This document shows, piece by piece, positions 15,343 to 48,493 of a DNA stretch of 64,000 nt. Position numbers and translations under genes: made by a program. The DNA comes from Thermoflexia bacterium (GTDB lineage: Bacteria > Chloroflexota > Anaerolineae > B4-G1): contig DUEK01000002.1 in NCBI GenBank assembly GCA_011192155.1, positions 12,388-76,387 of the forward strand, read 5' to 3'. Numbering within the stretch: position 1 is the stretch's first letter; each line of letters opens with the position of its first letter. A model generated the notes under the pieces. It was not told the DNA's origin, did no database searches, and was given only the letters and a program-made list of their open reading frames with translations.

Positions 15343-15371
15343 TTGGCGTGGATATTGGAATCTGCTATAAT
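15343..15371 (+). promoter_or_regulatory. Sigma-70-like promoter for the signalling supercluster
   Basis: TTGGCG (15343-15348), 17-nt spacer, TATAAT (15366-15371), 72 nt upstream of the first REC gene. Confidence 0.4.
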
Positions 15372-15442
15372 GAGAAGCGATACACTAACACAGCCTGTTT
15401 TACTCAGCTCGGAGGCAAATTCTGTTACGGAGGGCTTTTCTT

Positions 15443-15820
15443 ATGAGTGATGTACAAATCCTCTACATCGAGGATGATCCCTCAAACCGCCTGTTGGTGC
15501 GGCGTATCCTGGAGGCGGAGGGTTATTCCATTACGGAAGCGGTGAGTGGTTTGGCCGGGTTGGAAATGGCTGCTCAAACAAAGCCGGATTTGATCCTGTT
15601 GGACATTAACCTTCCAGAGATAGATGGTTACGATCTGGCCCGGCGCTTTCGTGATACGTCCGGCTTGCAACAAGTGCCCATCCTGGCTCTTACAGCCAAC
15701 GTGATGAAAGGGGACCGGGAGCGCACACTGGAAGCAGGTTGTGATGGCTATATTCAAAAACCTATTGACGTAGACCGGTTGCCCGATCAGGTCAAAGCCG
15801 CGCTGCAGAAGAATAGATAG
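15443..15820 (+). CDS. Single-domain response regulator (CheY-like receiver)
   Basis: 'ILYIEDDPSN', 'LILLDINLPEIDG', 'ILALTA' and 'GYIQKP' form a complete REC signature. Confidence 0.9.
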   Translation: MSDVQILYIEDDPSNRLLVRRILEAEGYSITEAVSGLAGLEMAAQTKPDLILLDINLPEIDGYDLARRFRDTSGLQQVPILALTANVMKGDRERTLEAGCDGYIQKPIDVDRLPDQVKAALQKNR

Positions 15821-15835
15821 GTCATAGAGGTAATA

Positions 15836-16246: not shown

Positions 16247-16274
16247 TTGGGACACAGGACACGGGTGATCTACC

Positions 16275-22383: not shown

Positions 22384-22419
22384 ATCGTCAAAGCTGGATT
22401 GTGGGAAGGGAAGAAAGAT

Positions 22420-24384
22420 ATGAGCGAGTCAGCAAAAAAGCCAGGTTTCGCTACACGCGGCCCCGCCCCGATCAAAGGGAAGCGACGCGGCCCCGCCCCG
22501 ATCAAAGGGAAGCGACGCGGCGTAAGCGTTCGGCTCTTGCTTATGGGAAGTTCGTTTGTCATCATATTTCTGCTCTTGGCGGGTACTGTCCTCAACTATA
22601 TCTTTGTCTTTCGTTTGGCCCAGGCATCGAAGGCGGTGGGTGAGGAGATGGAGCGAGCCAACGCAGCGCTGGAGGTGGGCCGGGCGACGTCTGATTTATT
22701 CCTGGTTCTGGCGCAAGAGGCGTCGAGCCAGGATGCTGTTGACTTTGCCCAGTCTGTGAGAAAAGCCGAGCAGTCATTGATCGAGGTGGAGAAACGGTTG
22801 ACAGAAAGCGCTGCTTCTTTGCCGGTGGACGATCCGGTGCGGATCAACCTCGACAGGCTCGCGACCCGCACCGCCGATATACATACCCTCATAGACCGCG
22901 TAATTGTGCGAGTGGACGCAGGGGAGTGGTGGTATGTCGAGCAGCTCGTGCGAATCATAGTTTACCGTCATCGTATCTCTGTGATCGAATTGGTAGAACA
23001 GATGGGGAACTCAACTTCCGAGCGCCGCCGCGATGCTGAATCTGATGTCGATGCTGCCCGCCTCATGTTGCAGGTGGTTCCTATAGTGGTAGGGTTGTTG
23101 GTCGTCGGTGTGGTTGTGGGTACCGCCTTTGTCACCCATCGCAGTATTTCCAAGCCGGTGGAACGGTTGACCGACGCGGCCACTCGCTTGGCCTCTGGGC
23201 GACTGGAGGAGCGAGTCCCCATTGAGCGGATAGACGAGTTCCGGCGCTTGGCAGTCGCTTTCAACGAGATGACTGACCAACTGGAGGCTTCTTATACACA
23301 ACTGGAGCAACGCGTGGCCGAGCGCACGCGTGGCTTGCAGGCGGCGGCCGCGGTCGGGCGTGCCACTACCTCAATGCTTGACCCAGATCAACTACTGCGT
23401 CGCGTGGTGAACCTGGCCCGCGAGCGGTTCGATCTCTATTACGTAGGGCTGTTCCTTCTCGAAAGCGACTCTGGCCGCACGTTTGCCGTGCTTCGGGCTG
23501 GCACGGGTGAGGCCGGGCGGCAGATGATGGCGCAGGGGCACAGACTGGAAGTTGGCGGCGATTCGATGATTGGTCAGTGCACCTCTATGAACGAGGCGCG
23601 CGTTGCTTTGGACGTGGGCGAAGAAGCTGTGCGTTTCGATAACCCCCTCTTGCCGCAGACCCGTTCCGAACTGGCCCTGCCGCTCGTGGCGCGAGGCCGC
23701 GTCATCGGCGCGATGACCGTGCAGAGCGTGAAAGAGTCCGCTTTCGACGAAGAGTACATCGCCGTGTTGCAGACCATGGCTGACCAAGTGGCGGTGGCCA
23801 TTAACAACGCACACCTCTTTGCCGAGGCCCGGGCCGCACTGGAGGAGATGGCGGCTACTCAACGGCGCTATCTGGGCCAGGCGTGGGCCGAATACACGCA
23901 GACCGCAGAAGAGATTGCCTACGAGACCATGCGTCCGGGCGACGCCCCATTGGGTGACGCTATCCTGCCCGAGATTCAGCAAGTGGTGGAGCGGCGGAGT
24001 ACAGTAGCGTTGCAGAACGCCTCTCACACTTTGGCGCCTTTACATTCCGCTCTGATTTCGCCTATTGCTCTGCGCGGCGAGATTATTGGCGCGCTGGGCG
24101 TCCACGCCGATAAAGAGGATCGGCAGTGGAGCGACGATGACGTTGCCATCATTGAGGCCGTCGTCGAGCGTATGGCTCTGGCTGCCGAGAACATCCGTTT
24201 GCTGGAGGATACCCAGCGCCGCGCTGTCCGCGAGCGGCTGACGAGCGAGGTGACGGCCCGTATGCGCGAGACGCTGGACGTAGACACAGTGCTGCAAACG
24301 GCCATCCGCGAGATTGGAGAGGTACTGGATATTGCCAGGATTAAGGTGCGGATGGGAACTGGGAAGCCACCGATGCCTGAGTAG
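22420..24384 (+). CDS. 4-helix-bundle-like sensor / HAMP / GAF / GAF-like receptor protein without an output domain (paralogue 3)
   Basis: ATG at 22420 (M8 of the track ORF) follows GGGAAGGGAAGAAAG. TM / about 190-aa helical periplasmic domain / TM. HAMP 'ISKPVERLTDAATRLASGRLEERVPIERIDEFRRLAVAFNEMTDQL'. GAF1 'FDLYYVGLFLLE'. Tail 'QRRAVRERLTSEVTARMRETLDVDTVLQTAIREI...RIKVRM'. Confidence 0.85.
   Translation: MSESAKKPGFATRGPAPIKGKRRGPAPIKGKRRGVSVRLLLMGSSFVIIFLLLAGTVLNYIFVFRLAQASKAVGEEMERANAALEVGRATSDLFLVLAQEASSQDAVDFAQSVRKAEQSLIEVEKRLTESAASLPVDDPVRINLDRLATRTADIHTLIDRVIVRVDAGEWWYVEQLVRIIVYRHRISVIELVEQMGNSTSERRRDAESDVDAARLMLQVVPIVVGLLVVGVVVGTAFVTHRSISKPVERLTDAATRLASGRLEERVPIERIDEFRRLAVAFNEMTDQLEASYTQLEQRVAERTRGLQAAAAVGRATTSMLDPDQLLRRVVNLARERFDLYYVGLFLLESDSGRTFAVLRAGTGEAGRQMMAQGHRLEVGGDSMIGQCTSMNEARVALDVGEEAVRFDNPLLPQTRSELALPLVARGRVIGAMTVQSVKESAFDEEYIAVLQTMADQVAVAINNAHLFAEARAALEEMAATQRRYLGQAWAEYTQTAEEIAYETMRPGDAPLGDAILPEIQQVVERRSTVALQNASHTLAPLHSALISPIALRGEIIGALGVHADKEDRQWSDDDVAIIEAVVERMALAAENIRLLEDTQRRAVRERLTSEVTARMRETLDVDTVLQTAIREIGEVLDIARIKVRMGTGKPPMPE
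22456..22520 (+). repeat. 30-nt tandem repeat, about 2.2 copies (read as GPAPIKGKRR)
   Basis: CGCGGCCCCGCCCCGATCAAAGGGAAGCGA at 22456-22485 and 22486-22515, plus a partial copy. Encodes the cytoplasmic N-terminal tail of paralogue 3. Confidence 0.9.
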
Positions 24385-24435
24385 GCGCTGGTGATCTAAC
24401 TACAGAGCTGGATTGTGGAAAGGGAAAGAAGAAAG

Positions 24436-28451: not shown

Positions 28452-30859
28452 ACCGGACAGATACTGCTTCTGTGCGCCCGCGAGGTTTGAAGTGGCGGTT
28501 GGCCGACGTCTCTTTGCGTTTCAAGTTATACGTCGCTTTGGGCGTTTCGATCTTGGGCTTGCTCGTCATCGCCGGTGTGACTGTCTCTACCAGTGTGGTC
28601 AATCAGCGACTGGTGGACCGCACTCTGACGCGCCAGCGCCAGTTGGCCGACTTGGCATCCGCCATCAACAACGACCTGCTGACTGTTCAGAACCAGGCTT
28701 TCGAGTTCTACGATACCTGGGACAGCACCGGTTTTGAGGCATCGGGTCAGGGTGGATTTGAAGCTGCCCGGAGGGCCTACGTGACTCCGTTGCGGGAGCA
28801 GATAGATCGGATTCGAGACAACATTGCCGCAATTGAGCAGCTAGAGCCTGATGAATCTACCCGCGCTGTTTTGGCGAGCATCGCGAGTAACGTGGATGCG
28901 TACGAGACCAGTTTGCTCGAAATGAGCGACCATATGGAAAACCTGGGCTTTTACTACAGCGGCGAGGCTGGTCAGACGCGGGCAGCTATGGGCGAGCTAC
29001 AGGCCCTGCTGGACGACGCCGGCCTGGAATCGCTCAAGGCCACCACTCTGGAGATCAGGCGGCAGGAAAAGAACTTTTTCCTGTACTCTGACCTCGCTTC
29101 TGCCAGGATCGTGCAAGAGTGGATTGGACAGTTCGGAGAGCAGATCGCTGCCATAGATGACGATCAACTGTCGTCGGAAGACAGGGCTCGGCTGGATTAT
29201 TTGATCGAGCGTTATCTTGATCACTTTCTTGCTGCCGCGAACCACTTTAGCCTGCTCGACCAAAGCCGGGGGAACCTCATTAGCCAAAGCGACTTGACCG
29301 GTGTACTGGTCACCGACTTGTTCGAGCAACAACAGATTGAATTCGACGCTACGCTAGAGCAGCTTCGAGGGCGACAGTCTAACATCACCTTTGTGGTGAT
29401 TGGCTTGGCCCTGATAGCTTTTTTTGTCAGTGTCTCTGTCGCTTACATTGTCGCCGATCAGATAGTTCGGCCGGTCCAGATGTTGGGCGAGGCTGCCGAG
29501 CGGCTGGGCGCGGGCGATTTGGACGTTCGCGCCGCCGTCCGCGGGCAGGATGAGATCGGCGCCACCGCTGCCGCTTTCAACTTTATGGCCGACCGATTGC
29601 GGGACTTGCTCACCGGATTGGAGCGGCGCGTGGCTGACCGCACCCGCGCACTGGAGCAGCGCTCCTCCTACCTGGAAGCATCGGCTGAGGTGGGGCGCGC
29701 TGCTACCTCGATCCTGGAGACGGACCAGTTGATCCGCCAGGTGGTTGACCTAATCCGCGACCGGTTTGGCTTGTACTACGTGGGGTTGTTCCTGGTGGAC
29801 GAGGCGGGCGAATGGGCCGCGCTGCGGGCCGGCACCGGCGAGTTTGGTCAGATGATGCTGGCGCGGGAGCACAGGCTGGCGGTGGGCGGGGATTCGATGA
29901 TCGGTCAGTGCGTGTCTCGAGACGAGGCGCGCATTGCGCTGGACGTTGGTGAGGAGGCTGCCCGCTTCGATAACCCGCTGTTGCCAGATACGCGCTCGGA
30001 GCTGGCCTTGCCGCTTCGTTCTCGTGGGCGCGTAGTCGGGGCGATGAGCGTGCAGAGCGTGGAGGAGTCTGCTTTCGACGAGGCTGCTATTGCCGTGTTG
30101 CAGACGATGGCTGACCAAGTGGCGGTGGCGCTCGACAACGCTCGCCTATTCGCCGAAGCTCAAGCGGCCGTGGATGCAGCGCGCAGCGCCTACGGCGAAA
30201 TGAGCCGTGAGGCATGGAGTAAGCTGCTCCGCGCTCAACCCGATATGGCCTACCGTAGCGACGAACGCGGCGTCGCCAGGGCCGAGGGCGTATGGCGGCC
30301 TGAGATGGAGCGGGCGCTGCGGGAAGGCGAGACCATGTTGGGCGACGGCGATGGCGAGAGGCGTCCTCTGGCCATACCTATCAAAGTGCGCGGTGACGTC
30401 ATCGGTGTGTTGGATACCTACAAGCCCGGCGGCGCGGACGAGTGGATGCCCGAGGAGGTCGCTTTGTTGGAAACATTGGCCGACCAGTTGGGCACGGCGT
30501 TGGAGAGCGCGCGGCTCTACGGGGATGCGCAGCGCAGCGCCGCCCGCGAGCGATTAGTCTCCGAGATCACTGATAGGATGCGGCGCGCCGCCGATGTGGA
30601 GGGTATCGTGCAGGCGGCCGTGGATGAACTTTTCAGTGTATTGGGAACGTCCCGCGCTTTTGTGCGCCTCACCTCTCCCGATCAAAGGGAAGCAAGGCGG
30701 CCCCTGCGCGATCAAAGGGAAGCAAGGCGGCCCCTGCGCGATCAAAGGGAAGCAAGGCGGCCCCTACGCGATCAAAGGGGAGCAAGGCGGCCCCTGCGCG
30801 ATCAAAGGGAAGCAAGGCGACGTTCGCCCTCGCCAACGCGCGATGTGAAAGTTGAGTGA
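28448..30859 (+). CDS. Long helical (CHASE3/4HB-like) sensor / HAMP / GAF / GAF-like receptor protein without an output domain (paralogue 6)
   Basis: ATGA overlap. About 270-aa helical periplasmic domain. HAMP 'IVRPVQMLGEAAERLGAGDLDVRAAVRGQDEIGATAAAFNFMADRL'. GAF1 'FGLYYVGLFLVDEAGEWAALRAGTGEFG'. Tail 'QRSAARERLVSEITDRMRRAADVEGIVQAAVDEL...RAFVRL', followed by a 5x DQREARRPLR repeat. Confidence 0.85.
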   Translation: MNRTDTASVRPRGLKWRLADVSLRFKLYVALGVSILGLLVIAGVTVSTSVVNQRLVDRTLTRQRQLADLASAINNDLLTVQNQAFEFYDTWDSTGFEASGQGGFEAARRAYVTPLREQIDRIRDNIAAIEQLEPDESTRAVLASIASNVDAYETSLLEMSDHMENLGFYYSGEAGQTRAAMGELQALLDDAGLESLKATTLEIRRQEKNFFLYSDLASARIVQEWIGQFGEQIAAIDDDQLSSEDRARLDYLIERYLDHFLAAANHFSLLDQSRGNLISQSDLTGVLVTDLFEQQQIEFDATLEQLRGRQSNITFVVIGLALIAFFVSVSVAYIVADQIVRPVQMLGEAAERLGAGDLDVRAAVRGQDEIGATAAAFNFMADRLRDLLTGLERRVADRTRALEQRSSYLEASAEVGRAATSILETDQLIRQVVDLIRDRFGLYYVGLFLVDEAGEWAALRAGTGEFGQMMLAREHRLAVGGDSMIGQCVSRDEARIALDVGEEAARFDNPLLPDTRSELALPLRSRGRVVGAMSVQSVEESAFDEAAIAVLQTMADQVAVALDNARLFAEAQAAVDAARSAYGEMSREAWSKLLRAQPDMAYRSDERGVARAEGVWRPEMERALREGETMLGDGDGERRPLAIPIKVRGDVIGVLDTYKPGGADEWMPEEVALLETLADQLGTALESARLYGDAQRSAARERLVSEITDRMRRAADVEGIVQAAVDELFSVLGTSRAFVRLTSPDQREARRPLRDQREARRPLRDQREARRPLRDQRGARRPLRDQREARRRSPSPTRDVKVE
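30680..30819 (+). repeat. 30-nt tandem repeat, 5 copies (read as DQREARRPLR)
   Basis: GATCAAAGGGAAGCAAGGCGGCCCCTGCGC starts at 30680, 30710, 30740, 30770 and 30800, with 1-2 substitutions. Forms the C-terminal extension of paralogue 6. Confidence 0.9.
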
Positions 30860-33567: not shown

Positions 33568-35415
33568 ATGTCCAATTGGGTTAAGAGATTCCTTGCCCCG
33601 CCGGTATTTGAGGACGACGAGGATCAGGCGCGTAATGCGGCGTTACTCAACACCCTTCTGTGGGCTACGTTCGGGATAATCGTAGCAGCCGCTCCGGTAC
33701 TGATCATATTCAATACAAGCGCGAGCGGTGTGTTTCTATCCACCGTGATTGTTGTGTTATTCGCTTTGGCAGTCCTGGGACTGATTCGAGTGCTGCATCG
33801 TGGACGTGTGCGGCTGGCAACCATACTCGTGCTGCTTCTTTTATTGGTGATGTTCACTGTCACAATCTATACCTTTGGCGGAATACGCAATACTACTGCC
33901 TCTGGTTACCTCATAGTCGTTTTCATAGCAGGATTGCTTTTGGGTGGGCGCGCCGCGCTCGTGTTTGGTTTATTGAGCATGTTGGGCGCGTTGGGCGTAT
34001 TCTGCGCTGAACGGTATTGGACTATTCCTATTCCGTTTACACCCAAGGTAAATTTTGATGACCTGGGTATGTTGTTTGCCTTTTCTGGCCTGATGGTGGT
34101 ATTGGTAAATCTTGCCCAGCGTAGCATTGTTAGCGCGCTCGAACGCGCCCGGAGCAGCGAGCGTATCTTGGCTGACGCCAACCGAGAACTGCGAGTTGAA
34201 CGTGATGCATTCCAGTCTCGCATCCGAGAGATGGAGCGCCGGTCTAGGCAGTTCCAAGCGGCGGCTGAAGTAGCCCGCGATATCGTTGCTGCTCGTGAAC
34301 TGGGCGACCTGCTGAACCGGGCCGTCAACTTGATCCGAGAGCGCTTTGGGTTCTACCACGCCGGCATTTTCTTGGTGAACGATCAGGGCGAGTACGCCGT
34401 CTTACAGGCAGCCACCGGCAAAGCCGGCCGCCAGATGCTGGAGCAGGGGCACCGGTTGAAGGTGGGCGAGGTGGGCATCGTGGGTTATGTCACTGCGGTG
34501 GGTCTGTCTCGCATCGCCCTGGATGTGGGGGCCGACGCGGTGCATTTCGACAATCCATTGTTGCCGGAGACTCGTTCGGAAATGGCATTGCCGCTTCGCG
34601 TGGGAAAGGATGTCATCGGTGCCTTGGATGTGCAGAGCCGGGACGCGGGGGCTTTTGACGAGGAAGATGTGACTATCCTACAGACGATAGCCGACCAGGT
34701 GGCGGTAGCCATCCAGAACGCCCGCTTGCTCCACGAAGCGCAGCAGACGGTGCGCGAGCTTGAGACGGTCTCTGGGCAATACACCCAAGAAGCGTGGCTC
34801 ACTGAGCGGCCGCGGGGATACCGTTACCGGGGGTTGGGTGTCGAGCAGGTTTTCGAATATCCCTCAGAGGTTCGCCAGGCGTGGCAGCAGGGAGACGCTT
34901 CGCTTCCCTTTGATCGTGAGGGAGACGCTTCGCTTCCCTTTGATCGTGAGGGAGGCGCTTCGCTTCCCTTTGATCGTGAGGGAGGCGCTTCGCTTCCCTT
35001 TGATCGTGAAGGGCGACTCATAACCACTCCTCAACTTGAGGCTGGGGGCGACGGGGGAGAAACTATCAGCAGCCTGGCCGTGCCTCTGAAACTGCGCGAC
35101 CAAGTGTTGGGCGTACTCCACCTGCGCTTTGAGGATGATGCGGCCTCGCCCGAAATGATTTCGCTGGTTGAAGAGATGGCCGACCGCTTGGCCCTGGCTC
35201 TGGAAAGCGCCCGCCTGTTCGAGGAGACGCAATCCCGCGCCCGGCGCGAGCAGACCATCCGCCAGATCACTGAGCAGATGCGCCGTGCCGTGGATGTGGA
35301 GACCATCCTGCAGACTACCATTACCCGCTTGGGAGAGGCCGTGGGCGCGCCTCGGGTCTATGTCCGTCTGGGTACCGGGGTGGAAAAGTTGTCAGATAAC
35401 AATAAAAGGAGTTGA
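33568..35415 (+). CDS. 6TM / coiled-coil / GAF / GAF-like receptor protein without an output domain (paralogue 8)
   Basis: Five to six hydrophobic helices. GAF1 'FGFYHAGIFLVNDQGEYAVLQAATGKAG...TRSEMALPL'. Linker with a 4x 'DASLPFDREG' repeat. Tail 'QSRARREQTIRQITEQMRRAVDVETILQTTITRLGEAVGAPRVYVRL'. Confidence 0.85.
   Translation: MSNWVKRFLAPPVFEDDEDQARNAALLNTLLWATFGIIVAAAPVLIIFNTSASGVFLSTVIVVLFALAVLGLIRVLHRGRVRLATILVLLLLLVMFTVTIYTFGGIRNTTASGYLIVVFIAGLLLGGRAALVFGLLSMLGALGVFCAERYWTIPIPFTPKVNFDDLGMLFAFSGLMVVLVNLAQRSIVSALERARSSERILADANRELRVERDAFQSRIREMERRSRQFQAAAEVARDIVAARELGDLLNRAVNLIRERFGFYHAGIFLVNDQGEYAVLQAATGKAGRQMLEQGHRLKVGEVGIVGYVTAVGLSRIALDVGADAVHFDNPLLPETRSEMALPLRVGKDVIGALDVQSRDAGAFDEEDVTILQTIADQVAVAIQNARLLHEAQQTVRELETVSGQYTQEAWLTERPRGYRYRGLGVEQVFEYPSEVRQAWQQGDASLPFDREGDASLPFDREGGASLPFDREGGASLPFDREGRLITTPQLEAGGDGGETISSLAVPLKLRDQVLGVLHLRFEDDAASPEMISLVEEMADRLALALESARLFEETQSRARREQTIRQITEQMRRAVDVETILQTTITRLGEAVGAPRVYVRLGTGVEKLSDNNKRS
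34891..35010 (-). repeat. 30-nt tandem repeat, 4 copies, antisense orientation (read as G(D/G)ASLPFDRE)
   Basis: GGAG(A/G)CGCTTCGCTTCCCTTTGATCGTGA(G/A) at 34891, 34921, 34951 and 34981. It is the reverse complement of the GATCAAAGGGAAGCGAAGCG core. Confidence 0.9.
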
Positions 35416-35418
35416 GAA

Positions 35419-35858: not shown

Positions 35859-38357
35859 ATGAGTGAGACCTCACTTGAGGAATATAGACAATTGGTGGAA
35901 AAGCAGGGATGGGCGTTGATGGACATCGTCCAATCCGTGGCTCTGGGCGACATGGACGCAAAGGTTGAGATCCCGGAGGGGATCGAAGTGCTTTCCGAGT
36001 TGGCCGTCGGCGTGGAGATGATGATTGATGATCTTCGTGAGATGTTGGCCGAGCAGGAGCGTGCTGGGGCGGAGTTGGCACGCCGCGCCCTGCAACTTTC
36101 TACCGCTGCCGAGGTCTCCCGCGCTTCCTCCTCCATCCTTCGCCTGGATGAGCTTCTTCCCCAGGCAGTGGAGTTGATCCGCGACCGTTTCAACTTTTAC
36201 TACGTCGGCATTTTCCTGTTGGACGAGGGAGGACAACGTGCGGTGCTGCAGGCCGGCACAGGCGAGGCGGGTCGTCAGATGTTGGAAGCGGGGCATGCAT
36301 TGGAGGTGAGCGATACCTCAATGATTGGTGGGTGCGTCCTACACAAAGAGGCGCGCATCGCGCTGGACGTGGGAGAGGAACCGGTACGTTTCAATAACCC
36401 ATTCCTGCCAGACACACACTCAGAGATGGCGTTGCCGCTGCTCAGCCTGAGCGAGCCCGTTGGCGCGATGACCATTCAGAGCACCAAGATGGCCGCTTTT
36501 AGCGAGGGGGACGTGGCGGTGTTGCAGACGATGGCCGACCAACTCGCCACTGCCATCGCCAACGCCCGCTTGTTCGAACAAACTCAGGCTACCCTGAGCT
36601 ATGCCGAGGCGCTCTACGAGGGCAGCGAGCGGGTGGTGCGTGCCACGACCATAGACGACGTTCTGCAAGCGCTGGTTCACTCAACCTTGTTGCAGCGACT
36701 GACCCGCAGCACTATTAATCTCTTTGATCGCCCATGGGGCGACGAGCGCCCCGAGTCTATGACGGTTGTGGCAGCCTGGGAGCGTGATGCAGCGTCAGCA
36801 GCGCCTGAGGGCAAAAGATTGTCCGTTTCTGTCGGCGTCCGCCACATGCTGGATCAGTTTCCGGCCACGCACTGGTTTGACCGGGATGAGCCGCGCATCG
36901 TGCGGGATATTGCCACAGACGAGCACATAGACGAGCGCACCCGCATCCTGTTCGCGGAGCAGCTTGGCCTGCAGAGCATGATGATTTTTCCCCTGGTTGC
37001 GGGCGAGCAGTGGATCGGTGTTCTCGCGGCGCAAGGTAACGTCGCGCTGGATGTAGGCGAAGCCGAGATTCGCCAGATCACCGCTCTGACCGAGCAGTCC
37101 GCTGCTGTGATTCAGAGCTTGCGATTGCTCCAAGAAGCCCAGACTCGCGCTCACCGCGAGCAGGCCCTGCGCGAGATTGCCGCCGTTGTTGCCGCTAGTA
37201 CAGACCTGGTGGCAGGTTTGCCCGCTATCACTGAGCACTTGTGTCAACTGATCCCCTTGGATGTACTGACCCTGGCTACCTACACCCCCGGCGAGCCGGA
37301 GTATACGCTCTTTGCCTCTCCCAATATGAGGGATAGCGAAGCGGCCCCTTCCAATATGAGGGATAGCGAAGCGGCCCCTTCCAATATGAGGGATAGCGAA
37401 GCGGCCCCTTCCAATATGAGGGATAGCGAAGCGGCTCTTGGCGCAGAGACGAAGGCCGATCACTTTGCCCGACCCGGCATCTATTTGCCGGTGGAGGGGA
37501 CCTGCCCTGGATGGGTCATTACCCATCGGGAACCCTGGCTGGAGGCGGACATTCGCCAGGAGATGCTATTTTTGGAGGATGAGCAACTTGTCTCTGAGGG
37601 AATAATCTCACGATTGTCTTTGCCGCTGTTGGTTGGGGAGCAGGTTGTCGGCACCATCAACCTGACCAGTACACAACCTAGCGCTTTTACTGAGGCGCAT
37701 CTGCTGTTCCTGCAGCAGGTGGCTGACCAGATGGCGTCGGCCCTGGATCGCTCCCGTCTGCTGCAAGAGACCCGCAGCGCCTTGACCGAGGCCGAGGCCA
37801 CCCACCGCGCCTACCTACAACGTGGCTGGCGTGATTATCTGCGCCAGCAAGAAACGCTGCAACAAGGGGCTTTCCTCTACGATCGGACGCAAGGAGCAAC
37901 CGTGCTGGATGGCTTGGCCGAACCCGTTGCCGGGCTTTGGTTGCCAGAGATGGAGCGCGCTCTGGCTGAAGGACTTGTCGCCGCAACCGGGAACGGTGAC
38001 GACGGGGAGCGACGAACGGGATTGGCTATCCCCATTGTCCTGCGTGGACAGACCATCGGCGTTCTGGGCGTGGATGACCCCGCTGGCGAGCATAGATGGT
38101 CTGAAGACGACCGGGCCGTGATCGAGGCGGTCGGGAGGCAATTGGCCCAAGCGTTGGAGAACGCCCGCTTGCTGGGAGAGACCCAGTTGCGCGCGCAGCG
38201 AGAACGCATTATCGGTGACATCGCCAGCCGGGTTCGCGCCTCTATGGATATGAAGAATATTCTACAGACAACCGTGCGGGAACTGGGCATAGCGCTTGGT
38301 ACCGACCGGGCCTTCATCCGGCTGAACCCAGACACACAGCCATCGGAGAAACCCTAA
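35859..38357 (+). CDS. Soluble degenerate-HAMP / GAF x3-4 receptor-like protein without an output domain (paralogue 9)
   Basis: No TM. HAMP-like remnant 'VALGDMDAKVEIPEGIEVLSELAVGVEMMIDDL'. GAF1 'FNFYYVGIFLLDEGGQRAVLQAGTGEAG'. Further GAFs. A 4x SNMRDSEAAP repeat. Tail 'QLRAQRERIIGDIASRVRASMDMKNILQTTVRELGIALGTDRAFIRL'. The stop lies inside a palindromic repeat. Confidence 0.85.
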   Translation: MSETSLEEYRQLVEKQGWALMDIVQSVALGDMDAKVEIPEGIEVLSELAVGVEMMIDDLREMLAEQERAGAELARRALQLSTAAEVSRASSSILRLDELLPQAVELIRDRFNFYYVGIFLLDEGGQRAVLQAGTGEAGRQMLEAGHALEVSDTSMIGGCVLHKEARIALDVGEEPVRFNNPFLPDTHSEMALPLLSLSEPVGAMTIQSTKMAAFSEGDVAVLQTMADQLATAIANARLFEQTQATLSYAEALYEGSERVVRATTIDDVLQALVHSTLLQRLTRSTINLFDRPWGDERPESMTVVAAWERDAASAAPEGKRLSVSVGVRHMLDQFPATHWFDRDEPRIVRDIATDEHIDERTRILFAEQLGLQSMMIFPLVAGEQWIGVLAAQGNVALDVGEAEIRQITALTEQSAAVIQSLRLLQEAQTRAHREQALREIAAVVAASTDLVAGLPAITEHLCQLIPLDVLTLATYTPGEPEYTLFASPNMRDSEAAPSNMRDSEAAPSNMRDSEAAPSNMRDSEAALGAETKADHFARPGIYLPVEGTCPGWVITHREPWLEADIRQEMLFLEDEQLVSEGIISRLSLPLLVGEQVVGTINLTSTQPSAFTEAHLLFLQQVADQMASALDRSRLLQETRSALTEAEATHRAYLQRGWRDYLRQQETLQQGAFLYDRTQGATVLDGLAEPVAGLWLPEMERALAEGLVAATGNGDDGERRTGLAIPIVLRGQTIGVLGVDDPAGEHRWSEDDRAVIEAVGRQLAQALENARLLGETQLRAQRERIIGDIASRVRASMDMKNILQTTVRELGIALGTDRAFIRLNPDTQPSEKP
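37321..37440 (+). repeat. 30-nt tandem repeat, 4 copies, divergent family member (read as SNMRDSEAAP)
   Basis: CCAATATGAGGGATAGCGAAGCGGCCCCTT is repeated four times, the last copy diverging. It shares AGCGAAGCGGC(C/T)CC with the ppk copy at 51993-52031. Confidence 0.85.
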
Positions 38358-44400: not shown

Positions 44401-45463
44401 CATTTCTGTGGCCGATAGCGGTATTGGTATCCCGCCGGATAAGATTGACATGATCTTTGAGCCTTTCACCCAAGCTGATTCTTCCACTACTCGCGAGGCC
44501 GGAGGCACAGGATTGGGCCTTTCTATCACCAGTAGCTTTGTCAAGATGCACGGTGGTCGTATGTGGGTGGAGAGTGAGGCGGGAGAGGGTTCCACTTTCT
44601 ACATGACGTTGCCCATCCATGGAGCTTCTCTGTCCGAGGAAGAGGCGGGGAAGGAGCAACTGGAGCCGGAGCCTGAACTTGAACAAAAAACTGTTCTTTG
44701 TGTAGAGGACGACGACGGGGTTGTCACCCTCTTTCGCCGCTACTTGAACAATCAAGGCTACAACGTCGTTGGCCTCACCGACAGCACGGTGGCGGTGGAA
44801 CGGGCACGAGAGCTACAGCCGTTTGCCATCACGCTGGATGTGATGATGCCCGGCAAGGATGGCTGGCAGGTCATTCAAGAGTTGAAGGCCGATCCCGAAA
44901 CCTGTGACATTCCTGTTATCATGTGTACTATTGTGGGGGAGAAGGAGTATGGCATCAGTTTGGGCGCGGTCGATTACTTGCTCAAGCCAATTCTCGAACA
45001 TGACCTGCTGGCTGCGCTGGGTCGCCTGGACTGGGCGGGGGGCCAACACCTGGTGTTGGTGGTGGACGACCAGCCGGAGGATCGAAACCTGCTGCGCCGG
45101 ATGCTCGAGGGCCAAGAGGGGTACGAGGTTGTGGAGGCGGGCGGTGGCCAGGAGGCCATCGCCGCGATCCAACAAACACCGCCCCACGTTATCATCCTGG
45201 ATCTTATGATGCCGAACGTGGATGGGTTCGCCGTTTTGGAGGCGGTTAAAACGGACGAGAATACTCGCTCTATTCCTATCATTGTTGTAACTGCCAAGGA
45301 CCTGACCACAGAAGAGCGAGAGGCCCTCAGTAGTGGAGTGGAGGCATTGCTGCAAAAGGGGATCTTTGAGCAGCACGAGCTACTGGCAGACGTGGCAGAG
45401 GCGCTGAACCGATTAGGAGACAACGCAGGAGGTGAATCAAGATATGAAGCAGACCCCACATAA
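38411..45463 (+). CDS. Giant hybrid sensor histidine kinase (2 PAS, about 9 GAF, HisKA, HATPase_c, 2 REC), 2350 aa
   Basis: PAS1 carries 'CHNYICPAEKGRCP'. PAS2 'YRVILDSIEEAYYEVDLAGNFTFFNDA'. Serial GAFs, two of receptor-paralogue type ('FGFYHAGVFMV', 'FGYYHAGVFLLDEQDEYAVLQAASSEGG'). H-box 'MSHELRTPLNSIIGFS'. 'GGTGLGLSITSSFVKMHGG'. REC 'VLCVEDDDG...TLDVMMPGKDG' and 'VLVVDDQPED...ILDLMMPNVDG'. Confidence 0.9.
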   Translation: MAKASDKRKTSAQLIEELQEPAEMPCESVERLKVLLESVPSGIVVIDAETHEIVAANPATIEMLGAPLEQVIGSVCHNYICPAEKGRCPITDLGQMVDKAERVLLTPDGERVPILKTVASVMLNGREHLIESFVDITEHKQTERALRKSEEKYRVILDSIEEAYYEVDLAGNFTFFNDALCAMLGYTRDELMGANYRQYTGDENTERVYQTFNTVYRTKEPAALFDWEIIRKDGTNKLVEASVSLMTDPVGDEPLGFRGIVRDVTERARSEVIRARTEAEIVKLNSELTTLNRIGQALISALNMEETLTIITERVSHLMGVAAASVVLHDEAQGDLYFAAASGEGADFVLSARFGLGQGIAGWVVQHGEAAIVPDVSQDERFFDDLDKRSGLTTRSILCVPLQAKGQVIGAIEVMNKKAGDFDQEDLRFLTSLAAPAATAIENARLFEQSQAFAQDLAVLNELSQALTARLSVEEVLEEAYRQIARLVDTTNFYIGLYDQEKDEVAISFMVSKSEIDRQITVIPAAHGFTGYIIRNRTSVLVKENVAEWLEEKGIEMVGDPACSWLGVPLLVGDQVLGVMAVQSYTTPCLYGEHDLDLLMAIAGPMAIAIQNARLYEQAQHEIGERKQAEAEVRRRAEQAALTYEVGQRVSGELGLGELLAEIVTVVRDAFDYYGVMLLLEEETGRLTPDQGEAKRLTLQSIAGGYADVFPSDLEIAVGEGMIGHAAASGKSQISNDVSQNPYYARKAEEETKSELAVPIRSGRKLIGVLDLQSDELDAFDETDVMLMETLADQIGAAIGNARLYEEAQRRLREQTMLFDVSQRLADTPLQVDEIAKVAARQFTEVMEAAECSLSLLDPQGDALQTLADFVTKDGIILQNDEQEEESFALSDYPATARVMETRQPLVVQASDPGADPDELAYMRQHEIATLAIVPLVAKGQAVGVIEIVMWEEHHYTAEWLNLAMTLANQIAGALENARLYEEIQRELTERKRMEEVLQETHEELEKYTTILERQTARLRVGAEVAREVSAILDVHQLLDETVRLISDEFGFYHAGVFMVGDLGEYAILRASSSEGGRRMLERGYRVPVDARPEPPDASGIVGYVAATGEYRIALDVGENVATLPSDRRGAVSFNNPDLPDTRSEICLPLRMHGRTIGVLDIQSAQEAAFSESDMAGFQTLADQLAVSIENARLVERTEDQLSEMGRLYGEYSAAAWADLLSPERPRGYIYDRVDVLPVMDSPSPTLDLAPARGESETTGSMLTMPLKLRGQTIGVLGVQESDGVREWSPEEVAIVEAVSDQVAIALDSARLFGEARTHAAEMVVLNELAQSLTARLTVEEVLEETYRGVSRLMDTTNFYIGLYNPELDSVSFPLAFEHGQAANWRPRRLSSGLTEHIIRSRQPLLVREGVSERMEELGIEMIGAPALSWLGAPLLVGDRVLGVMAIQSTTTPRAYGKHEQDLLTAVASQTAIALQSANLFHETQRRATQLAAAAEVARDATAILEVDQLLDETVHLISEQFGYYHAGVFLLDEQDEYAVLQAASSEGGRRMLERGHRLKVGKVGIVGYAAATGEPRVALDVGQDEVHFAHDDLPDTHSEMGLPLKVREQVIGVLDVQSEQVAAFSEDDVSALQTMADQLATAIANARLFQETRSEAQRRALINEMLQAASTSLNPEELLHQAGEVISQRLESPSAIFTWDAAEEILCTVAVHDSKAADVPLPEAFREMTRVINPALFEAVGKRRTSILEVTSSDQEEATRFAGVSGPLVATAKRNQAQSVIYVPLVSRDQVLGVLGIGRLEDQPLVNVEFIELLAANLSVAVENARLYQGAVQTAERLTEVDRLKSQFLANMSHELRTPLNSIIGFSRVILKEIDGPLTDMQRTDLQAVYNSGQHLLGLINDILEVAKIDSGKMELVSEVVNLQDIIKGVMSTAIALVKDKSGVKLQQVVPQDLPTIMGDTRRIRQAILNLVSNAAKFTTEGFIRVEVEVADNEVVISVADSGIGIPPDKIDMIFEPFTQADSSTTREAGGTGLGLSITSSFVKMHGGRMWVESEAGEGSTFYMTLPIHGASLSEEEAGKEQLEPEPELEQKTVLCVEDDDGVVTLFRRYLNNQGYNVVGLTDSTVAVERARELQPFAITLDVMMPGKDGWQVIQELKADPETCDIPVIMCTIVGEKEYGISLGAVDYLLKPILEHDLLAALGRLDWAGGQHLVLVVDDQPEDRNLLRRMLEGQEGYEVVEAGGGQEAIAAIQQTPPHVIILDLMMPNVDGFAVLEAVKTDENTRSIPIIVVTAKDLTTEEREALSSGVEALLQKGIFEQHELLADVAEALNRLGDNAGGESRYEADPT
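40478..40500 (+). repeat. 30-nt-family repeat, single copy (read as DQGEAKRL) inside a GAF of the giant kinase
   Basis: GATCAAGGGGAAGCGAAACGACT. A 10-aa insert 'TPDQGEAKRL' lies between 'EETGRL' and 'TLQSIAGG', flanked by GACTCAC / GACTGAC. Confidence 0.6.
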
Positions 45464-47141
45464 TCAAAGGGAAGCAACGCGACATAAATTCGAGCACCAG
45501 GTTTGGTTAGAGTGTGCGGGCTGTGGACATCGCGTCTTGTTTACCCACCCACTGAAAGCGTGTGAGAAGTGTGGTGGGCAATGGCTCGACGCGAGTTATG
45601 ACTATGACAGCGTCCGCGAGCAGTGGCCTGCTGTGTTGAGTGAGCGACCCTTTGACATGTGGCGCTACAGGGAGCTTCTTCCCCTGCGCGACGACACCAA
45701 TAAAGTGACCATGGGTGAGGGAGGAACGCCGCTGCTCCACGCCACCAACTTGGGGCTGATGCTCGGCGCTCCGCACATCTACTTCAAGGACGAGCGGCAA
45801 GGGCCGACCGGTTCATTCAAAGACCGGCAGGCGGCGTTGGCCATCTCGGTGATGAAAGAGCACGACATGACCGAGGCAGTTGTTGCCTCTACCGGCAATG
45901 TCGCCATCTCCTACTCAGCCTACTCTGCGCTGGCCGGTATCAAGATGTGGACCTTTCTCACCAGCCTGGTGCCCCCTGAGAAAATGCGCGAGGTAGCGCT
46001 CTATGGGAGCGAGGTCATCAAAGTGACTGCCTCTTATGATCAGACCAAGAAAGTGGCGGCGGATTTTGCGGAGCGTAAGGGCATTTTTCTCGACCGAGGG
46101 ATTCGGAGTATAGCGGCCCGCGAGGCTATGAAAACCGTCGCTTTCGAGATGGCCGAGCAATTGCCCATGTTGATTGGCGACGGCGATACCCTCTGGCGCG
46201 CGCCCGATTGGTACATCCAGGCCACCAGTGGGGGGATGGGGCCGGTGGGCGTGTGGAAAGCTTACGAGGAGATGGTGAGACTGGGGCTGGTGGACAAGAT
46301 GCCCAAGCTGGCCTGCATCCAGGTCGCCGGCTGCGCGCCGATGGTTCACTCCTTCAACAAGGGCCTGGACGAGGCCGAGCCGGTCCTCAACCCGCAGACC
46401 TTGGTCATCACCATCGCCACCGGCAGCCCTGGCCCGGCCTACACTTTTCTGTCTCGCGTCATTCGAGAGCACGGGGGAGCCTTTGAGGCCGTGACTGACG
46501 AAGAGGTCTTTCGCGCTATGCACGTGATGGCCAAGTTGGACGGCGTCTCGATGGAGACGGCGGCCGCGACGGCCTTTGCTGGGTTGTTCAAGTTGCTCAA
46601 TAAGGGTATAATAAAGCGTGATGAGGTCGTGGTCGTCAATTGCTCCGGACATACCTTCCCGGTCGAAAAGCACTTGCTGGGCGATGAGTGGGCGCGAACG
46701 GTTGATGTGCCCAAGAGAGAGGACGCTGTCGAGGAGGGATTGCTAGGCTCTCTGGAACAACTCGACGGTCGGGTGCAGAGCATTGTCATCATTGAGGATA
46801 ATCCCCAGGCCACGTTGTTGTTGCGGCGTATCTTGCAGACACGAGGGGAGTACCGGATATTTGAGGCTCACGACGGAATCGCAGGCTTGGAGTTGGTGCG
46901 CCGCGAGCGGCCCGATTTGATCTTGCTAGACCTGATGATGCCGGGTATGGATGGCTTTGAAGTGCTAGATGCGCTCAAGGCCGACGAAAACTTGAGCGAC
47001 GTGCCGGTGATTGTCATCACGGCCAAGGAGTTGACGATTGCCGAACGGCAGCGTCTCAGCGGGAGGATTGACAAGTTAATGCAAAAAGGCTCTTTTACTG
47101 ACGAGGAGTTGCTGACAGAAATCCTAAAGCGGGCGGCATGA
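45444..47141 (+). CDS. Threonine-synthase-family PLP enzyme fused to a C-terminal response-regulator receiver domain
   Basis: AGGAGG at 45427-45432, then ATG at 45444. N-terminal zinc ribbon 'CAGCGHRV...CEKCGG'. PLP-lysine motif 'GPTGSFKDRQA'. 'ASTGNVAIS'. 'ATSGGMGP'. C-terminal REC 'IVIIEDNPQA...LILLDLMMPGMDG...VIVITAKE...LMQKG'. Confidence 0.8.
   Translation: MKQTPHNQREATRHKFEHQVWLECAGCGHRVLFTHPLKACEKCGGQWLDASYDYDSVREQWPAVLSERPFDMWRYRELLPLRDDTNKVTMGEGGTPLLHATNLGLMLGAPHIYFKDERQGPTGSFKDRQAALAISVMKEHDMTEAVVASTGNVAISYSAYSALAGIKMWTFLTSLVPPEKMREVALYGSEVIKVTASYDQTKKVAADFAERKGIFLDRGIRSIAAREAMKTVAFEMAEQLPMLIGDGDTLWRAPDWYIQATSGGMGPVGVWKAYEEMVRLGLVDKMPKLACIQVAGCAPMVHSFNKGLDEAEPVLNPQTLVITIATGSPGPAYTFLSRVIREHGGAFEAVTDEEVFRAMHVMAKLDGVSMETAAATAFAGLFKLLNKGIIKRDEVVVVNCSGHTFPVEKHLLGDEWARTVDVPKREDAVEEGLLGSLEQLDGRVQSIVIIEDNPQATLLLRRILQTRGEYRIFEAHDGIAGLELVRRERPDLILLDLMMPGMDGFEVLDALKADENLSDVPVIVITAKELTIAERQRLSGRIDKLMQKGSFTDEELLTEILKRAA
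45462..45485 (+). repeat. 30-nt-family repeat core, single copy, spanning the giant-kinase stop and the ThrC-REC N-terminus (read as NQREATR)
   Basis: AATCAAAGGGAAGCAACGCGAC immediately overlaps or follows the TAA at 45461-45463. Confidence 0.6.
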
Positions 47142-48493
47142 GTAGCCAAGATAAAATGAAGCGTATCAAGATTCTTTATGTAGAGGATGATCCATCCAGT
47201 GCTACACTGGTGCGTCGCTTGCTCGAAAGCGAGGGTTACCAGGTTGTACATGCCGCAGATGGCCTGGCTGCCATAGAGGCCGCCAGGCGCGAAATACCGG
47301 CCCTGATTTTGATGGACATAAACATCGGCGGCCTGGATGGCTACGAGGTGACCACTCGCTTGCGATCCATCGAGGAAGTGGAGGGGGTGCCTATCGTGGC
47401 CGTCACTGCCGCCACGTTGGATGGCGACCGAGAGCGGGCGCTCATTGCCGGGTGTACCGGCTATATCGCCAAGCCGATTGATGTGGATAAATTCCCGGAA
47501 CAGGTATACTCCTTCCTGCAAGGGACGAAGGAAGAGATCGAGTCTGCGGAGGAAAAGAGCGAGTATCTGGTCGAGTACAGCCGCAGTTTGGTGAATCGGT
47601 TGGAGACCAAGATCCGTGAATTGGAGGGAGCGCACGCCGAGTTACAGCGGATTGAGAAAGTAAAGTCGGATTTCATCATCTTGGCCAGCCACGAATTGCG
47701 CACGCCGATGACGTGTGTCTACGGTTACATCCAGATGCTGCTCGCTAACCCTGATATTCCCGGTGATGCCGATGAAGAGGGCAGCGCCCGCAACCTGCTT
47801 CATCGCATCGCCGCTGCCACGCATCGGCTTGGCCTGGTCTTTGACGAAATTCGCAACGTTTCCCTCATTGACGCCGATCGCTTAGACTTGGCCTGGGAGC
47901 CGGTGCCTCTGAAATCTCTGATCTATAACGTGGTGGGTAACTTGCAGAAAGCTGGTCCAACGCGGGATCTGCGATTCGAGTTTGAGGGAGTAGAAGAGTT
48001 GCCGGTGCTCTATGGGGATGATAAGCGCTTGCATCAAGCGCTATGGAACGTCGTTAGCAATTCGATAAAGTATACGCCCAATGGCGGGTGTATACGTATC
48101 GTAGGCCATCAAATTCAGGATACGGTACATCTCTCTATCCAGGATAGCGGCGTGGGTATTCCGCAGGCGGAGCAGGAGCACATATTCGATCACTTTTACG
48201 TGCTGGAAGATACGAGCCTTCACCACTCGAGTAAGACTGCGTTTAAAGGGGGCGGGTTAGGACTGGGGCTTACTGTGGCGCGAGGCATCATTGAAACCCA
48301 CGGCGGCAAGATCTGGGTAGAAAGCGAAGGGTACGACGAGGAGCAGTTACCGGGTAGCGTCTTTCACATTCTCCTGCCGTTGCGTAAAACTTCTTTCTCG
48401 CTAACTGATGCGTCTATTCCAGCTTCCATTCCAGAGGAGCATTACCCTCTGCCAGACGCATCCCCGGATCGCGCGCCATCAGAATCATACTGA
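47138..48493 (+). CDS. Hybrid histidine kinase (N-terminal REC, HisKA, HATPase_c)
   Basis: ATGA overlap with the upstream gene. REC 'ILYVEDDPSSA...LILMDINIGGLDG...IVAVTAA...GYIAKP'. H-box 'ASHELRTPMT'. 'NSIKYTPNGG'. 'DSGVGIP'. 'GGGLGLGLTVARGIIETHGG'. Confidence 0.9.
   Translation: MSSQDKMKRIKILYVEDDPSSATLVRRLLESEGYQVVHAADGLAAIEAARREIPALILMDINIGGLDGYEVTTRLRSIEEVEGVPIVAVTAATLDGDRERALIAGCTGYIAKPIDVDKFPEQVYSFLQGTKEEIESAEEKSEYLVEYSRSLVNRLETKIRELEGAHAELQRIEKVKSDFIILASHELRTPMTCVYGYIQMLLANPDIPGDADEEGSARNLLHRIAAATHRLGLVFDEIRNVSLIDADRLDLAWEPVPLKSLIYNVVGNLQKAGPTRDLRFEFEGVEELPVLYGDDKRLHQALWNVVSNSIKYTPNGGCIRIVGHQIQDTVHLSIQDSGVGIPQAEQEHIFDHFYVLEDTSLHHSSKTAFKGGGLGLGLTVARGIIETHGGKIWVESEGYDEEQLPGSVFHILLPLRKTSFSLTDASIPASIPEEHYPLPDASPDRAPSESY

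Follow-up and report, generated by a model that had tools for sequence, protein, structure and literature searches.

Chemosensory arrays with ParA-type positioning, represented by PpfA-TlpT of Rhodobacter sphaeroides and ParC-ParP of Vibrio, are among the closest described comparisons for a gene cluster that we analyzed in a 64,000-nucleotide (nt) stretch of contig DUEK01000002.1 from a Thermoflexia bacterium (the window; all positions are those of the whole window). The cluster consists of 17 closely packed genes, numbered g01 to g17 in order and all on the + strand between 15443 and 48493, nine of which encode receptor-like proteins. As in chemosensory arrays, divergent MCP-type sensors (4HB, dCache and HBM-like) and HAMP sit on a conserved module, kinases are few, response regulators include CheY-like single-domain receivers (REC), and a ParA gene lies beside that of a peptide-bearing receptor. 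Unlike these arrays, the cluster has no MCP signaling domain (PF00015), CheW, CheA (HPt/P5), CheR or CheB, its kinases are ordinary HisKA/HATPase enzymes, and the module common to the receptors is a GAF-reduced GAF-stub arrangement instead of a helical hairpin. Indeed, neither the cluster nor the flanking genes scanned hold CheW, HPt, CheR, CheB or motility genes. Lacking any MCP, CheA or CheW part, the locus is therefore not a chemosensory system. The parallel with chemoreceptor arrays drawn in a first-pass annotation of the sequence gains indirect support from the MCP-type sensors, the periplasmic binding proteins of related clusters, the shared core, the kinase fusions and the ParA partner peptide, but fails for MCP, CheA and CheW.

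Other described systems share individual traits with the cluster. NarX and NarQ follow the layout sensor-HAMP-S-helix-GAF-DHp-CA, with a GAF-like domain regarded as a signal transmitter and not a ligand sensor (PMC8199190). The membrane kinase g03 has the same linear layout, and the receptors share this front end up to the GAF; they carry a reduced GAF and a stub in place of DHp-CA and therefore, unlike NarX/NarQ, cannot autophosphorylate. The DHp of NarX/NarQ is HisKA_3, whereas that of g03 is HisKA, and the sensors of the receptors are not of the nitrate type. Further comparisons are the tandem GAFs of cyclic-nucleotide phosphodiesterases (PDE) and of adenylyl cyclases, and the phytochrome GAF-PHY module. 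A structure model of receptor g08 matches GAF-A/GAF-B of PDE5A/PDE2A and bacteriophytochrome photosensory modules over ~340-460 alignment columns, and long connecting helices occur in both. However, in PDEs and phytochromes the last helix enters a catalytic domain, whereas in the receptors the chain stops and the second module is devoid of beta3-alpha3-beta4. Finally, control of a histidine kinase by direct contact with a non-kinase or non-cognate sensor is known from NreA-NreB, where NreA is a free-standing GAF, and from RetS/LadS-GacS. The present case, where such control is proposed, differs from these in its nine membrane-bound co-sensors with a common core, encoded with ParA in one operon-like array.

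Full-text literature searches, which provide weak negative evidence, did not return a published description of such a system, and to that extent agree with the earlier claim that none of this organization has been described; the layout of the kinase itself is known from NarX/NarQ (PMC8199190). We class the system as a multi-sensor phosphorelay with ParA-type positioning. Should the transducers indeed act through the neighboring kinases, nature would have a second scheme for connecting many receptors to few kinases, with GAF modules in place of MCP, CheW and CheA. The bacterial class concerned is large, has hardly been studied and abounds in sediments, digesters and wastewater. A function would then also be at hand for a very large set of proteins labelled only 'GAF domain-containing protein' in databases. 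Three of its features are directly testable: the conserved C-terminal truncated-GAF stub, the proposed portable ParB-like N-terminal tag on cargo of one ParA clade, and a receiver-controlled enzyme of the threonine synthase family as the presumed output.

Starting from the established parts, folds, locus conservation, fusions and peptide motif, we favor, at a little under an even chance, a reading in which the kinase-less transducers control the GAF kinases by contact, ParA and g11 position the assembly, and phosphoryl groups end on receivers and on a pyridoxal phosphate (PLP) enzyme. The locus would then be a conserved multi-input phosphorelay of Anaerolineae, with nine dimeric transducers each coupling a different MCP-type or membrane sensor to a common cytoplasmic core, along which the signal would run from HAMP or coiled coil through the full GAF, the reduced GAF and an S-helix-like helix into the stub. 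The transducers would contact the GAF-containing HisKA kinases g03 and g15 as a hetero-oligomer or array, through conserved surfaces of the GAF, the coiled coil or the stub, and would thereby set kinase or phosphatase activity. Phosphoryl groups would pass, in this presumed direction of flow, to the two CheY-like RECs, to the REC-kinase g17 and to the REC of g16. The ATPase g10 would act with g11, whose ParB-like peptide would be a ParA-activating tag, and ParA would drive positioning or partitioning of the assembly along the nucleoid or a filament.

A receptor-kinase cluster conserved among Chloroflexota

The listing of open reading frames (ORFs) and our own translation reproduced the 17 genes, all on the + strand, at the coordinates and over the span previously annotated (Table 1). 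Pfam also bore out the gene order proposed from the sequence, that is, two REC proteins, a kinase, the paralogues with a ParA-type ATPase and a STAS-like protein interspersed, a 2350-amino acid (aa) PAS2-GAF~9-HisKA-HATPase-REC2 kinase, a ThrC::REC fusion and a REC-kinase. The 4-nt ATGA overlaps at 18875, 20587, 26481, 28448 and 47138 are all present, as is that of 8 nt at 31653 (g10/g11). Two figures had to be corrected. Intergenic spacing, put at gaps of 0-60 nt or overlaps of 4-8 nt, extends from a 32-nt overlap (g15/g16, if the GTG start of g16 is used) to a 77-nt gap, the widest between cluster genes (g13 to g14), and Pfam found six REC domains (g01, g02, two in g15, g16 and g17) instead of five. 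The true start of g16 may be an ATG four codons downstream of the GTG (junction 45432-45475). As for the promoter predicted at 15343, a site with an extended −10 TG does exist there, in the 400-nt gap 5' of g01 that is the only long upstream gap, as a match to the consensus pattern alone. Rfam returned no family match for the leader or for the entire window, and the idea that the leader holds a known RNA such as a riboswitch was dropped. As the genes on either side bear no relation to the cluster, its boundaries as first drawn are right.

A genome scan with the g10 ParA yielded hits in Anaerolineae (Chloroflexota), the closest being 90% identical, while an exact-sequence look-up of the same protein retrieved no record. 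We fetched 67 related loci (L-numbers below) and annotated them against the window proteins. In >20 Chloroflexota genomes the orthologues follow one common order, even where ParA is only 47% identical, and they are 40-86% identical across the ordered loci. The backbone reads REC-REC-g03-g04-g05-(variable g06/g08-like)-g09-ParA-g11-(g12)-(g13)-g14-g15-g16, and its middle expands and contracts among relatives. The first-pass annotation had left room for a lineage-specific accumulation of paralogues; the comparison of neighborhoods revealed a conserved layout instead, and because the same backbone with orthologous receptors recurs in many relatives, the cluster is not such a local pile-up. Two genes stand apart: an orthologue of g13 was seen in L002 only (78% identity), which makes g13 a peripheral part, and g17 was not seen after g16 in L026, L027 and L057, which places it outside the conserved core.

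Two independent contigs, each reached through a family member from the homologue list, show the same pattern when annotated with Pfam. Their clusters comprise a dCache-HAMP-GAF kinase, eight or more receptors that lack an output domain and have sensors of the MASE11, dCache, 4HB_MCP or sCache type, periplasmic binding proteins in between, and ParA. Genes for periplasmic solute-binding proteins of the Peripla_BP_6, SBP_bac_5 and ABC_sub_bind families lie among those of output-less receptors at L063:6699-7754 and 11853-13505 and at L066:7574-9710. This arrangement hints that some receptors may sense ligand-loaded binding proteins.

Nine receptors share a tandem GAF core and end without output domain

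The nine paralogues (g04-g09, g11, g12 and g14) measure 571-832 aa, in line with the 570-830 aa given at first. Pfam detected in none of them a kinase, cyclase, EAL/HD-GYP, DNA-binding or MCP signaling domain; their content consists of sensor domains, HAMP and/or GAF, and a partial second GAF. NCBIfam, against which g08, g11 and g14 were scanned, gave no family above cut-off for these three. The lack of output domains that the first-pass annotation had claimed is thus robust to hidden Markov model scans and to an AlphaFold2 model of g08, and the GAF motifs quoted there match our alignment consensus. Its description of all nine as HAMP/GAF proteins is right for the GAF, whereas Pfam recognizes HAMP in 5/9 (g04, g06, g07, g08 and g09), g14 has a degenerate version, and in g05, g11 and g12 a membrane segment leads directly to the coiled coil. 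Among the proposed sensors, the multi-pass domain of g05 (MASE11) and the Cache-like domain of g08 were upheld, but g09 weakly resembles HBM and not CHASE3. The sensor of g07 is weakly TarH-like, that of g12 weakly PilS-like with six transmembrane (TM) segments, and a g06-like relative in L063 (60% identical) bears 4HB_MCP_1.

Sequence conservation is concentrated in the core. Mean identity among the nine is 50% in the first GAF (GAF1), 41% in the stub (last 48 residues), 31% in the reduced GAF and 12% in the sensors; g07 is a paralogue of g06, and theirs is the sole related sensor pair (36% identical). A search with the g08 core returned 2037 proteins at E <= 1e-10, and the sensor types in the family include 4HB_MCP_1, dCache_1, sCache_3_2 and MASE11.

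The AlphaFold2 model of g08 residues 226-656 (mean predicted local distance difference test score, pLDDT, 81) begins with the HAMP helices and a long helix. The complete GAF comes next, joined by another long helix to the reduced GAF, after which a 48-residue helix and a short helix lead to an unpaired segment at the end. With two GAF folds and a long helix between them, it is a tandem GAF module, of whose second GAF only four strands and one helix remain, without the pocket-forming beta3-alpha3-beta4. Foldseek matched it to the tandem GAFs of PDE5A/PDE2A and to phytochrome photosensory modules with probability 1.00. ERT/DRT-like motifs after HAMP and RER[LT] before the stub were recognized by eye, and a long helix is predicted there. 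S-helices are parallel coiled coils of ~40 residues that have an ERT-type signature at their center. They sit, as a rule, between two signaling domains (PMC1592074), a rule from which the C-terminal S-helix-like copy of the receptors departs.

GAF1 is complete, and many of its polar positions are >=90% conserved in 88 aligned members, for example T-R-S-E on the strand preceding the last hairpin. Such conservation would suit receptors working autonomously, with GAF1 itself as the effector, which would take up or release a common small molecule or bind an unlinked target protein in response to the sensor, and the kinases as mere neighbors by descent. The closest solved relatives of GAF1 are ligand-binding GAFs, those of PtsP (the nearest by sequence), free methionine sulfoxide reductase (fRMsr) and the cAMP-binding Lcd1, and free-standing GAF regulators such as NreA exist, both of which would agree with autonomy. 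We nevertheless regard this as improbable: the cluster has no cyclase, phosphodiesterase or other messenger enzyme, GAF1 has no invariant cysteine, and conserved synteny and kinase fusions argue for a functional link. A GAF of the fRMsr type had been considered in its own right on account of a good fold match; since the family has no invariant cysteine, catalysis of this type is excluded.

The C-terminal stub matches the start of a GAF

Each receptor ends with the conserved tail motif QRRAxRERL...D...L...LG..R..VRL. To judge from profile alignments, this stub is the truncated start (alpha1-beta1) of a further GAF. In hhalign it aligned with the S-helix/alpha1/beta1 entry of GAF1 over 48 collinear columns (P = 4e-4), as against 14 columns with the HisKA profile (P = 0.14), and Pfam matched it weakly to GAF positions 1-24 and not at all to HisKA. 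In a fusion protein of L011 the stub position runs on into a complete GAF, and in g15 the counterpart helix (AERLTEV) enters DHp. The stub is present in all aligned family members (88/88), whose chains extend beyond it by a median of 18 residues; QRRA, R373 and L393 are its positions conserved at >=90% in these sequences. A profile of reduced GAF plus stub retrieved 82,384 cluster representatives at E <= 0.001.

A truncated GAF start might also be a scar, the receptors being fission products or decayed copies of multi-GAF kinases. The L011 continuation into a complete GAF, the commonness of giant multi-GAF proteins (<=21 matched stretches) and a recent 30-nt repeat in five of the genes could be cited in favor of such debris. 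This origin is, however, hardly credible in view of intact orthologues kept in order across genomes at 40-86% identity, of stub positions >=90% conserved in 88 sequences, of nine intact ORFs with coupled stops and starts, and of >2000 homologues that share the same end point.

Further interpretations of the tail were discarded. A pairwise alignment with g15, which set LDMDTVLKT against LANMSHELRT, suggested a degenerate DHp and thus a pseudo-kinase, but profile comparison rejects it. Completion by the stub of the reduced GAF in its own chain, that is, a circular permutation, is unlikely: the AlphaFold monomer places the strand of the stub, without a pairing partner, past the 48-residue helix and distant from the reduced GAF, where the first two strands are already present. 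Between chains, completion of a reduced GAF is conceivable. As to a split GAF finished by another protein of the cluster, none here starts with a GAF lacking alpha1-beta1.

Profile hits P0121-P0270 include giant multi-GAF proteins, 1100-3950 aa long, in which the reduced-GAF-plus-linker module is matched in <=21 stretches; these are apparently a large unstudied class. Many of them terminate in the stub, which therefore leaves no room for a later domain.

Kinases, receivers and a candidate output enzyme

The kinases g03, g15 and g17 match HisKA/HATPase with Pfam E values of 6e-9 to 4e-32 and possess SHELRTP H-boxes, the H-box of g03 being FLANMSHELRTPL. The H-box regions of g03 and g15 are nearly identical and that of g17 differs; the likeness of the former two would fit shared REC targets. 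Acidic-pocket and acceptor-Asp motifs of the RECs were read by eye.

The receptor core corresponds to an input module of the kinases. The front end of g03 (sensor-HAMP-GAF) is the same as that of the receptors, and residues 286-640 of g08 are collinear with residues 1471-1930 of g15 up to the helix that enters DHp (RERLTSEV vs AERLTEV). The GAFs of g15 alternate full and reduced, resembling concatenated receptor cores. Moreover, in L011 (1563 aa) and L057 (1190 aa) a g11-like receptor and a g15-like GAF-HisKA-HATPase-REC-REC are one polypeptide. A one-to-one pairing of the nine receptors with the nine GAFs of g15 was rejected, because receptor number (~4 to >10) and the length of the g15-like kinase (1151 to >1995 aa) vary freely among relatives.

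The same architecture could serve decoys or dominant modulators, that is, receptors that form mixed dimers with the kinases and titrate or silence them with no ordered array. Mixed dimers would draw on the sensor-HAMP-S-helix-GAF front end shared by g03 and on the GAF core shared by g15, and kinase and receptor genes are closely coupled in one cluster. Yet GAF1 of g03 is more distant, scoring 128 bits on the receptor GAF1 profile vs 246-293 bits for the receptors, the four-helix bundle of DHp would not be complete in a mixed dimer, and the conserved stub and reduced GAF would be role-less, so that we find a decoy function quite unlikely.

No DNA-binding or nucleotide-signaling output was found in the cluster proteins, and the PLP enzyme g16 would be the only recognizable candidate for a catalytic output. 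It scores 266 bits with the NCBIfam threonine synthase PRK08197 (cut-off 303), carries an N-terminal Zn-ribbon and retains the PLP-lysine motif SFKD. Genes like g16 directly follow that of the g15-like kinase in L011, L026, L027 and L057.

A partner-switching role of the STAS-like g13 was also considered and dismissed. Pfam revealed neither a HATPase_c_2-type anti-sigma kinase nor a SpoIIE/PP2C gene in the cluster, which thus lacks the cognate kinase and phosphatase, and g13 is poorly conserved.

A ParA clade and its peptide-tagged partner

The g10 protein has a deviant Walker A motif (NQKGGVAKTT), matches Soj/ParA entries of the PDB at E 1e-46 to 1.7e-51 and belongs to a Chloroflexota-specific ParA clade. 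The clade ParA gene and the one after it overlap, the shared stretch being 8-23 nt long in most loci, and the product of the second gene opens with the consensus M-x-D-K-D-L-R-x-Q-L-E-G-L-F-S-D in 32/34 cases vs 18/2568 other ORFs; in g11 this peptide is MSDNDLRDHLSGLFSD. About 16 residues long, it is followed by a disordered or acidic linker and then by bodies that vary from GAF receptors and multi-GAF kinases to PAS-GAF-LCP and FGE-sulfatase-domain proteins. Its hydrophobic spacing is like that of ParB N-termini from the same scan (LRSQLEGLF vs LGKGLEALL) and resembles the LG(R/K)GLxAL(I/L) motif of ParB. Short N-terminal peptides on diverse proteins activate ParA/MinD ATPases, including TlpT-PpfA for a chemoreceptor cluster (PMC7993993). 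Like g11, the partners ParB/Spo0J, SopB, MinE, PomX, McdB and TlpT are encoded immediately 3' of the ATPase gene, and ParA/MinD partners likewise display an extreme N-terminal peptide with a disordered linker on unrelated bodies. Unlike them, the g11-type body is a membrane receptor or kinase, and activation is putative.

In other genomes, the clade ParA is followed by a PAS-GAF-(PAS)-LytR_CpsA_Psr (LCP) or an FGE-sulfatase-domain protein with the same peptide, which thus resembles a portable tag for the cargo of this clade. LCP- and FGE-linked ParA copies are nested among receptor-linked ones in a neighbor-joining tree.

No other pair in the locus varies as little as ParA and the peptide-tagged gene, which could mean that ParA is the output. 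Receptors would in this case form hetero-oligomers with g11 and, by way of its N-terminal peptide, tune the ATPase cycle; ParA would then control a spatial process such as division-site choice or nucleoid segregation in the filament, with the kinases as a parallel branch. PomZ and MipZ regulate division (PMC7993993), and in relatives the clade ParA pairs with LCP-family cell-envelope enzymes, as such a function would lead one to expect. Against it, the peptide occurs on 1/9 receptors only, kinase fusions link the peptide-bearing receptor to phosphotransfer and the cluster has no division or segregation gene; we give it a low probability.

Proposed contact, positioning and array formation

Several points weigh against a contact-controlled phosphorelay positioned by ParA, which is the reading we prefer. 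The receptor-kinase contact is one that we infer, and co-transcription of the cluster is suggested by gene spacing alone. Two RECs are present in g15, yet Pfam found no HPt domain, a step expected after a hybrid kinase, in the 17 cluster proteins, so that any route for phosphate is tentative. No cluster protein has a GAF lacking alpha1-beta1 that could pair with the stub. ParA-type positioning is less usual for integral membrane proteins than for cytoplasmic cargo. Since the clade ParA also pairs with LCP and FGE cargo, it is, moreover, a general positioning module and not pathway-specific. Finally, known ParA/MinD-activating peptides are enriched in positive charge (PMC7993993), compared with which the partner peptide is only modestly basic: apart from one to three basic residues it is acidic, and the one to four K/R/H within the first 10 residues are not strictly conserved.

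A supramolecular array of transducers, GAF kinases and ParA, evolved independently of chemosensory arrays, would go beyond the contact-controlled phosphorelay and seems to us rather unlikely. GAF/reduced-GAF/stub contacts would here stand in for the lattice of MCP tip, CheW and CheA, and dimers may dock to one another through the stub, by exchange of strands or helices. In this way a single phosphorelay would integrate many chemical inputs and control the PLP enzyme and the CheY-like proteins of filamentous Chloroflexota.

Coordinates, internal repeats and flanking genes

Table 1. Features of the cluster in the window, with related loci (L-numbers) where an orthologue or counterpart was found
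Feature	Position	Strand	Evidence	Remarks
Promoter-like site TTGGCG-17-(TG)TATAAT	15343-15371	+	Consensus pattern match alone	Extended −10 TG
g01, single-domain REC response regulator, 125 aa	15443-15820	+	Pfam Response_reg E 9.5e-29	Orthologues at same position in L019, L029, L057
g02, single-domain REC response regulator, 136 aa	15836-16246	+	Pfam Response_reg E 7.7e-19	Orthologues in L010, L019, L029, L057
g03, membrane kinase, dCache-like sensor-HAMP-GAF-HisKA-HATPase, 867 aa	16275-18878	+	Pfam; two TM segments	Orthologues, 61% identity, in L010, L014, L029
g04, kinase-less transducer, 2TM-HAMP-GAF-full-size second GAF-stub, 571 aa	18875-20590	+	Pfam, alignment	Stub at residue 521; orthologues, 66-70% identity, in L009, L010, L014, L029, L063
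g05, kinase-less transducer, MASE11 multi-TM sensor-GAF-mini-GAF-stub, 598 aa	20587-22383	+	Pfam MASE11 E 1e-12	Stub at residue 540; orthologues at 42-60% identity
g06, kinase-less transducer, 4HB-type helical periplasmic sensor-HAMP-GAF-mini-GAF-stub, 661 aa	22399-24384	+	Pfam	
g07, kinase-less transducer, weak TarH-like sensor-HAMP-GAF-mini-GAF-stub, 689 aa	24415-26484	+	Pfam	
g08, kinase-less transducer, Cache-like sensor-HAMP-GAF-mini-GAF-stub, 656 aa	26481-28451	+	Pfam, Cache-like E 7e-6; AlphaFold2	
g09, kinase-less transducer, long helical sensor-HAMP-GAF-mini-GAF-stub-repeat tail, 803 aa	28448-30859	+	Pfam, weak HBM	g09-like best hit (54-86% identity) directly 5' of ParA in L001, L002, L004, L006, L009, L014, L029, L057; gene before ParA best matches g08 or g12, not g09, in L005, L010, L063, L066
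g10, ParA/Soj-type P-loop ATPase, 262 aa	30872-31660	+	Pfam AAA_31 E 6e-51	
g11, proposed ParA partner, N-terminal peptide-acidic linker-2TM-GAF-mini-GAF-stub, 618 aa	31653-33509	+		
N-terminal peptide of g11	31653-31700	+		
g12, kinase-less transducer, multi-TM (weak 6TM PilS-like)-GAF-mini-GAF-stub, 615 aa	33568-35415	+	Pfam	Orthologues, 45-66% identity, in L001, L002, L005, L010, L013
g13, small STAS/SpoIIAA-like protein (DUF7793), 120 aa	35419-35781	+	Pfam	DUF7793 30.4 bits, SpoIIAA-like 26.7 bits, both passing cut-offs
g14, soluble kinase-less transducer, degenerate HAMP-like segment-four GAF/mini-GAF-stub, 832 aa	35859-38357	+	Pfam, alignment	Four GAF stretches (Pfam), stub weakly matching GAF model positions 1-24; orthologues, 59-63% identity, in L002, L010, L013; 46% best hits in L004, L006 are ~1500-aa multi-GAF proteins after ParA
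g15, hybrid kinase, PAS x2-GAF/mini-GAF x9-HisKA-HATPase-REC x2, 2350 aa	38411-45463	+	Pfam	Orthologues in L009, L011, L017, L026, L027, L029, L057
g16, threonine-synthase-family PLP enzyme::C-terminal REC, 569 aa	45432-47141	+	Pfam PALP E 4e-59	
g17, REC-HisKA-HATPase kinase, 451 aa	47138-48493	+	Pfam	
Repeat arrays	22455-22521, 30679-30819, 31705-31790, 34889-35017, 37314-37435			34889-35017 in reverse orientation
Post-ParA LCP genes	L007:10755-14201, L008:10761-13049, L015:874-4335			
Post-ParA FGE genes	L016:10758-11861, L018:10752-12002, L025:663-1895			

A 30-nt tandem repeat with the core ATCAAAGGGAAGC lies inside the receptor genes g06, g09, g11 and g12, while g14 contains a related unit. 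Allowing <=1 mismatch, the core is matched 20 times vs 0.11 expected by chance. It is read in three forward frames and one reverse, giving IKGKR, DQREA, SKGSE and LPFDR peptides; copy number always preserves the frame, and the arrays fall in linkers or termini. None of the 67 related loci contains the core, which marks the repeat as recent and genome-specific. An exact 13-nt copy of the repeat core is present at 45463-45475, at the g15/g16 junction.

The downstream flank, on the opposite strand, contains a polyphosphate gene set directly 3' of the cluster (49914-57820, −), with PPK1, two PPK2, an adenylate kinase, a CYTH-HTH-CHAD protein and a metallophosphoesterase/Ppx-GppA-like/HD protein. 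The upstream flank holds two other PAS/GAF kinases, amino-acid ABC transport genes and an MttB-family gene. These two kinases (24-5274, +), a truncated 7TM-PAS-GAF-HisKA-HATPase and a PAS-rich GAF-HisKA-HATPase of 1072 aa, overlap by ~50 nt and are separate from the cluster. Just 5' of the cluster, at 12197-14709, a gene for a protein with an alanine-racemase N-terminal-domain fold comes immediately after that of the MttB family (trimethylamine methyltransferase-like).

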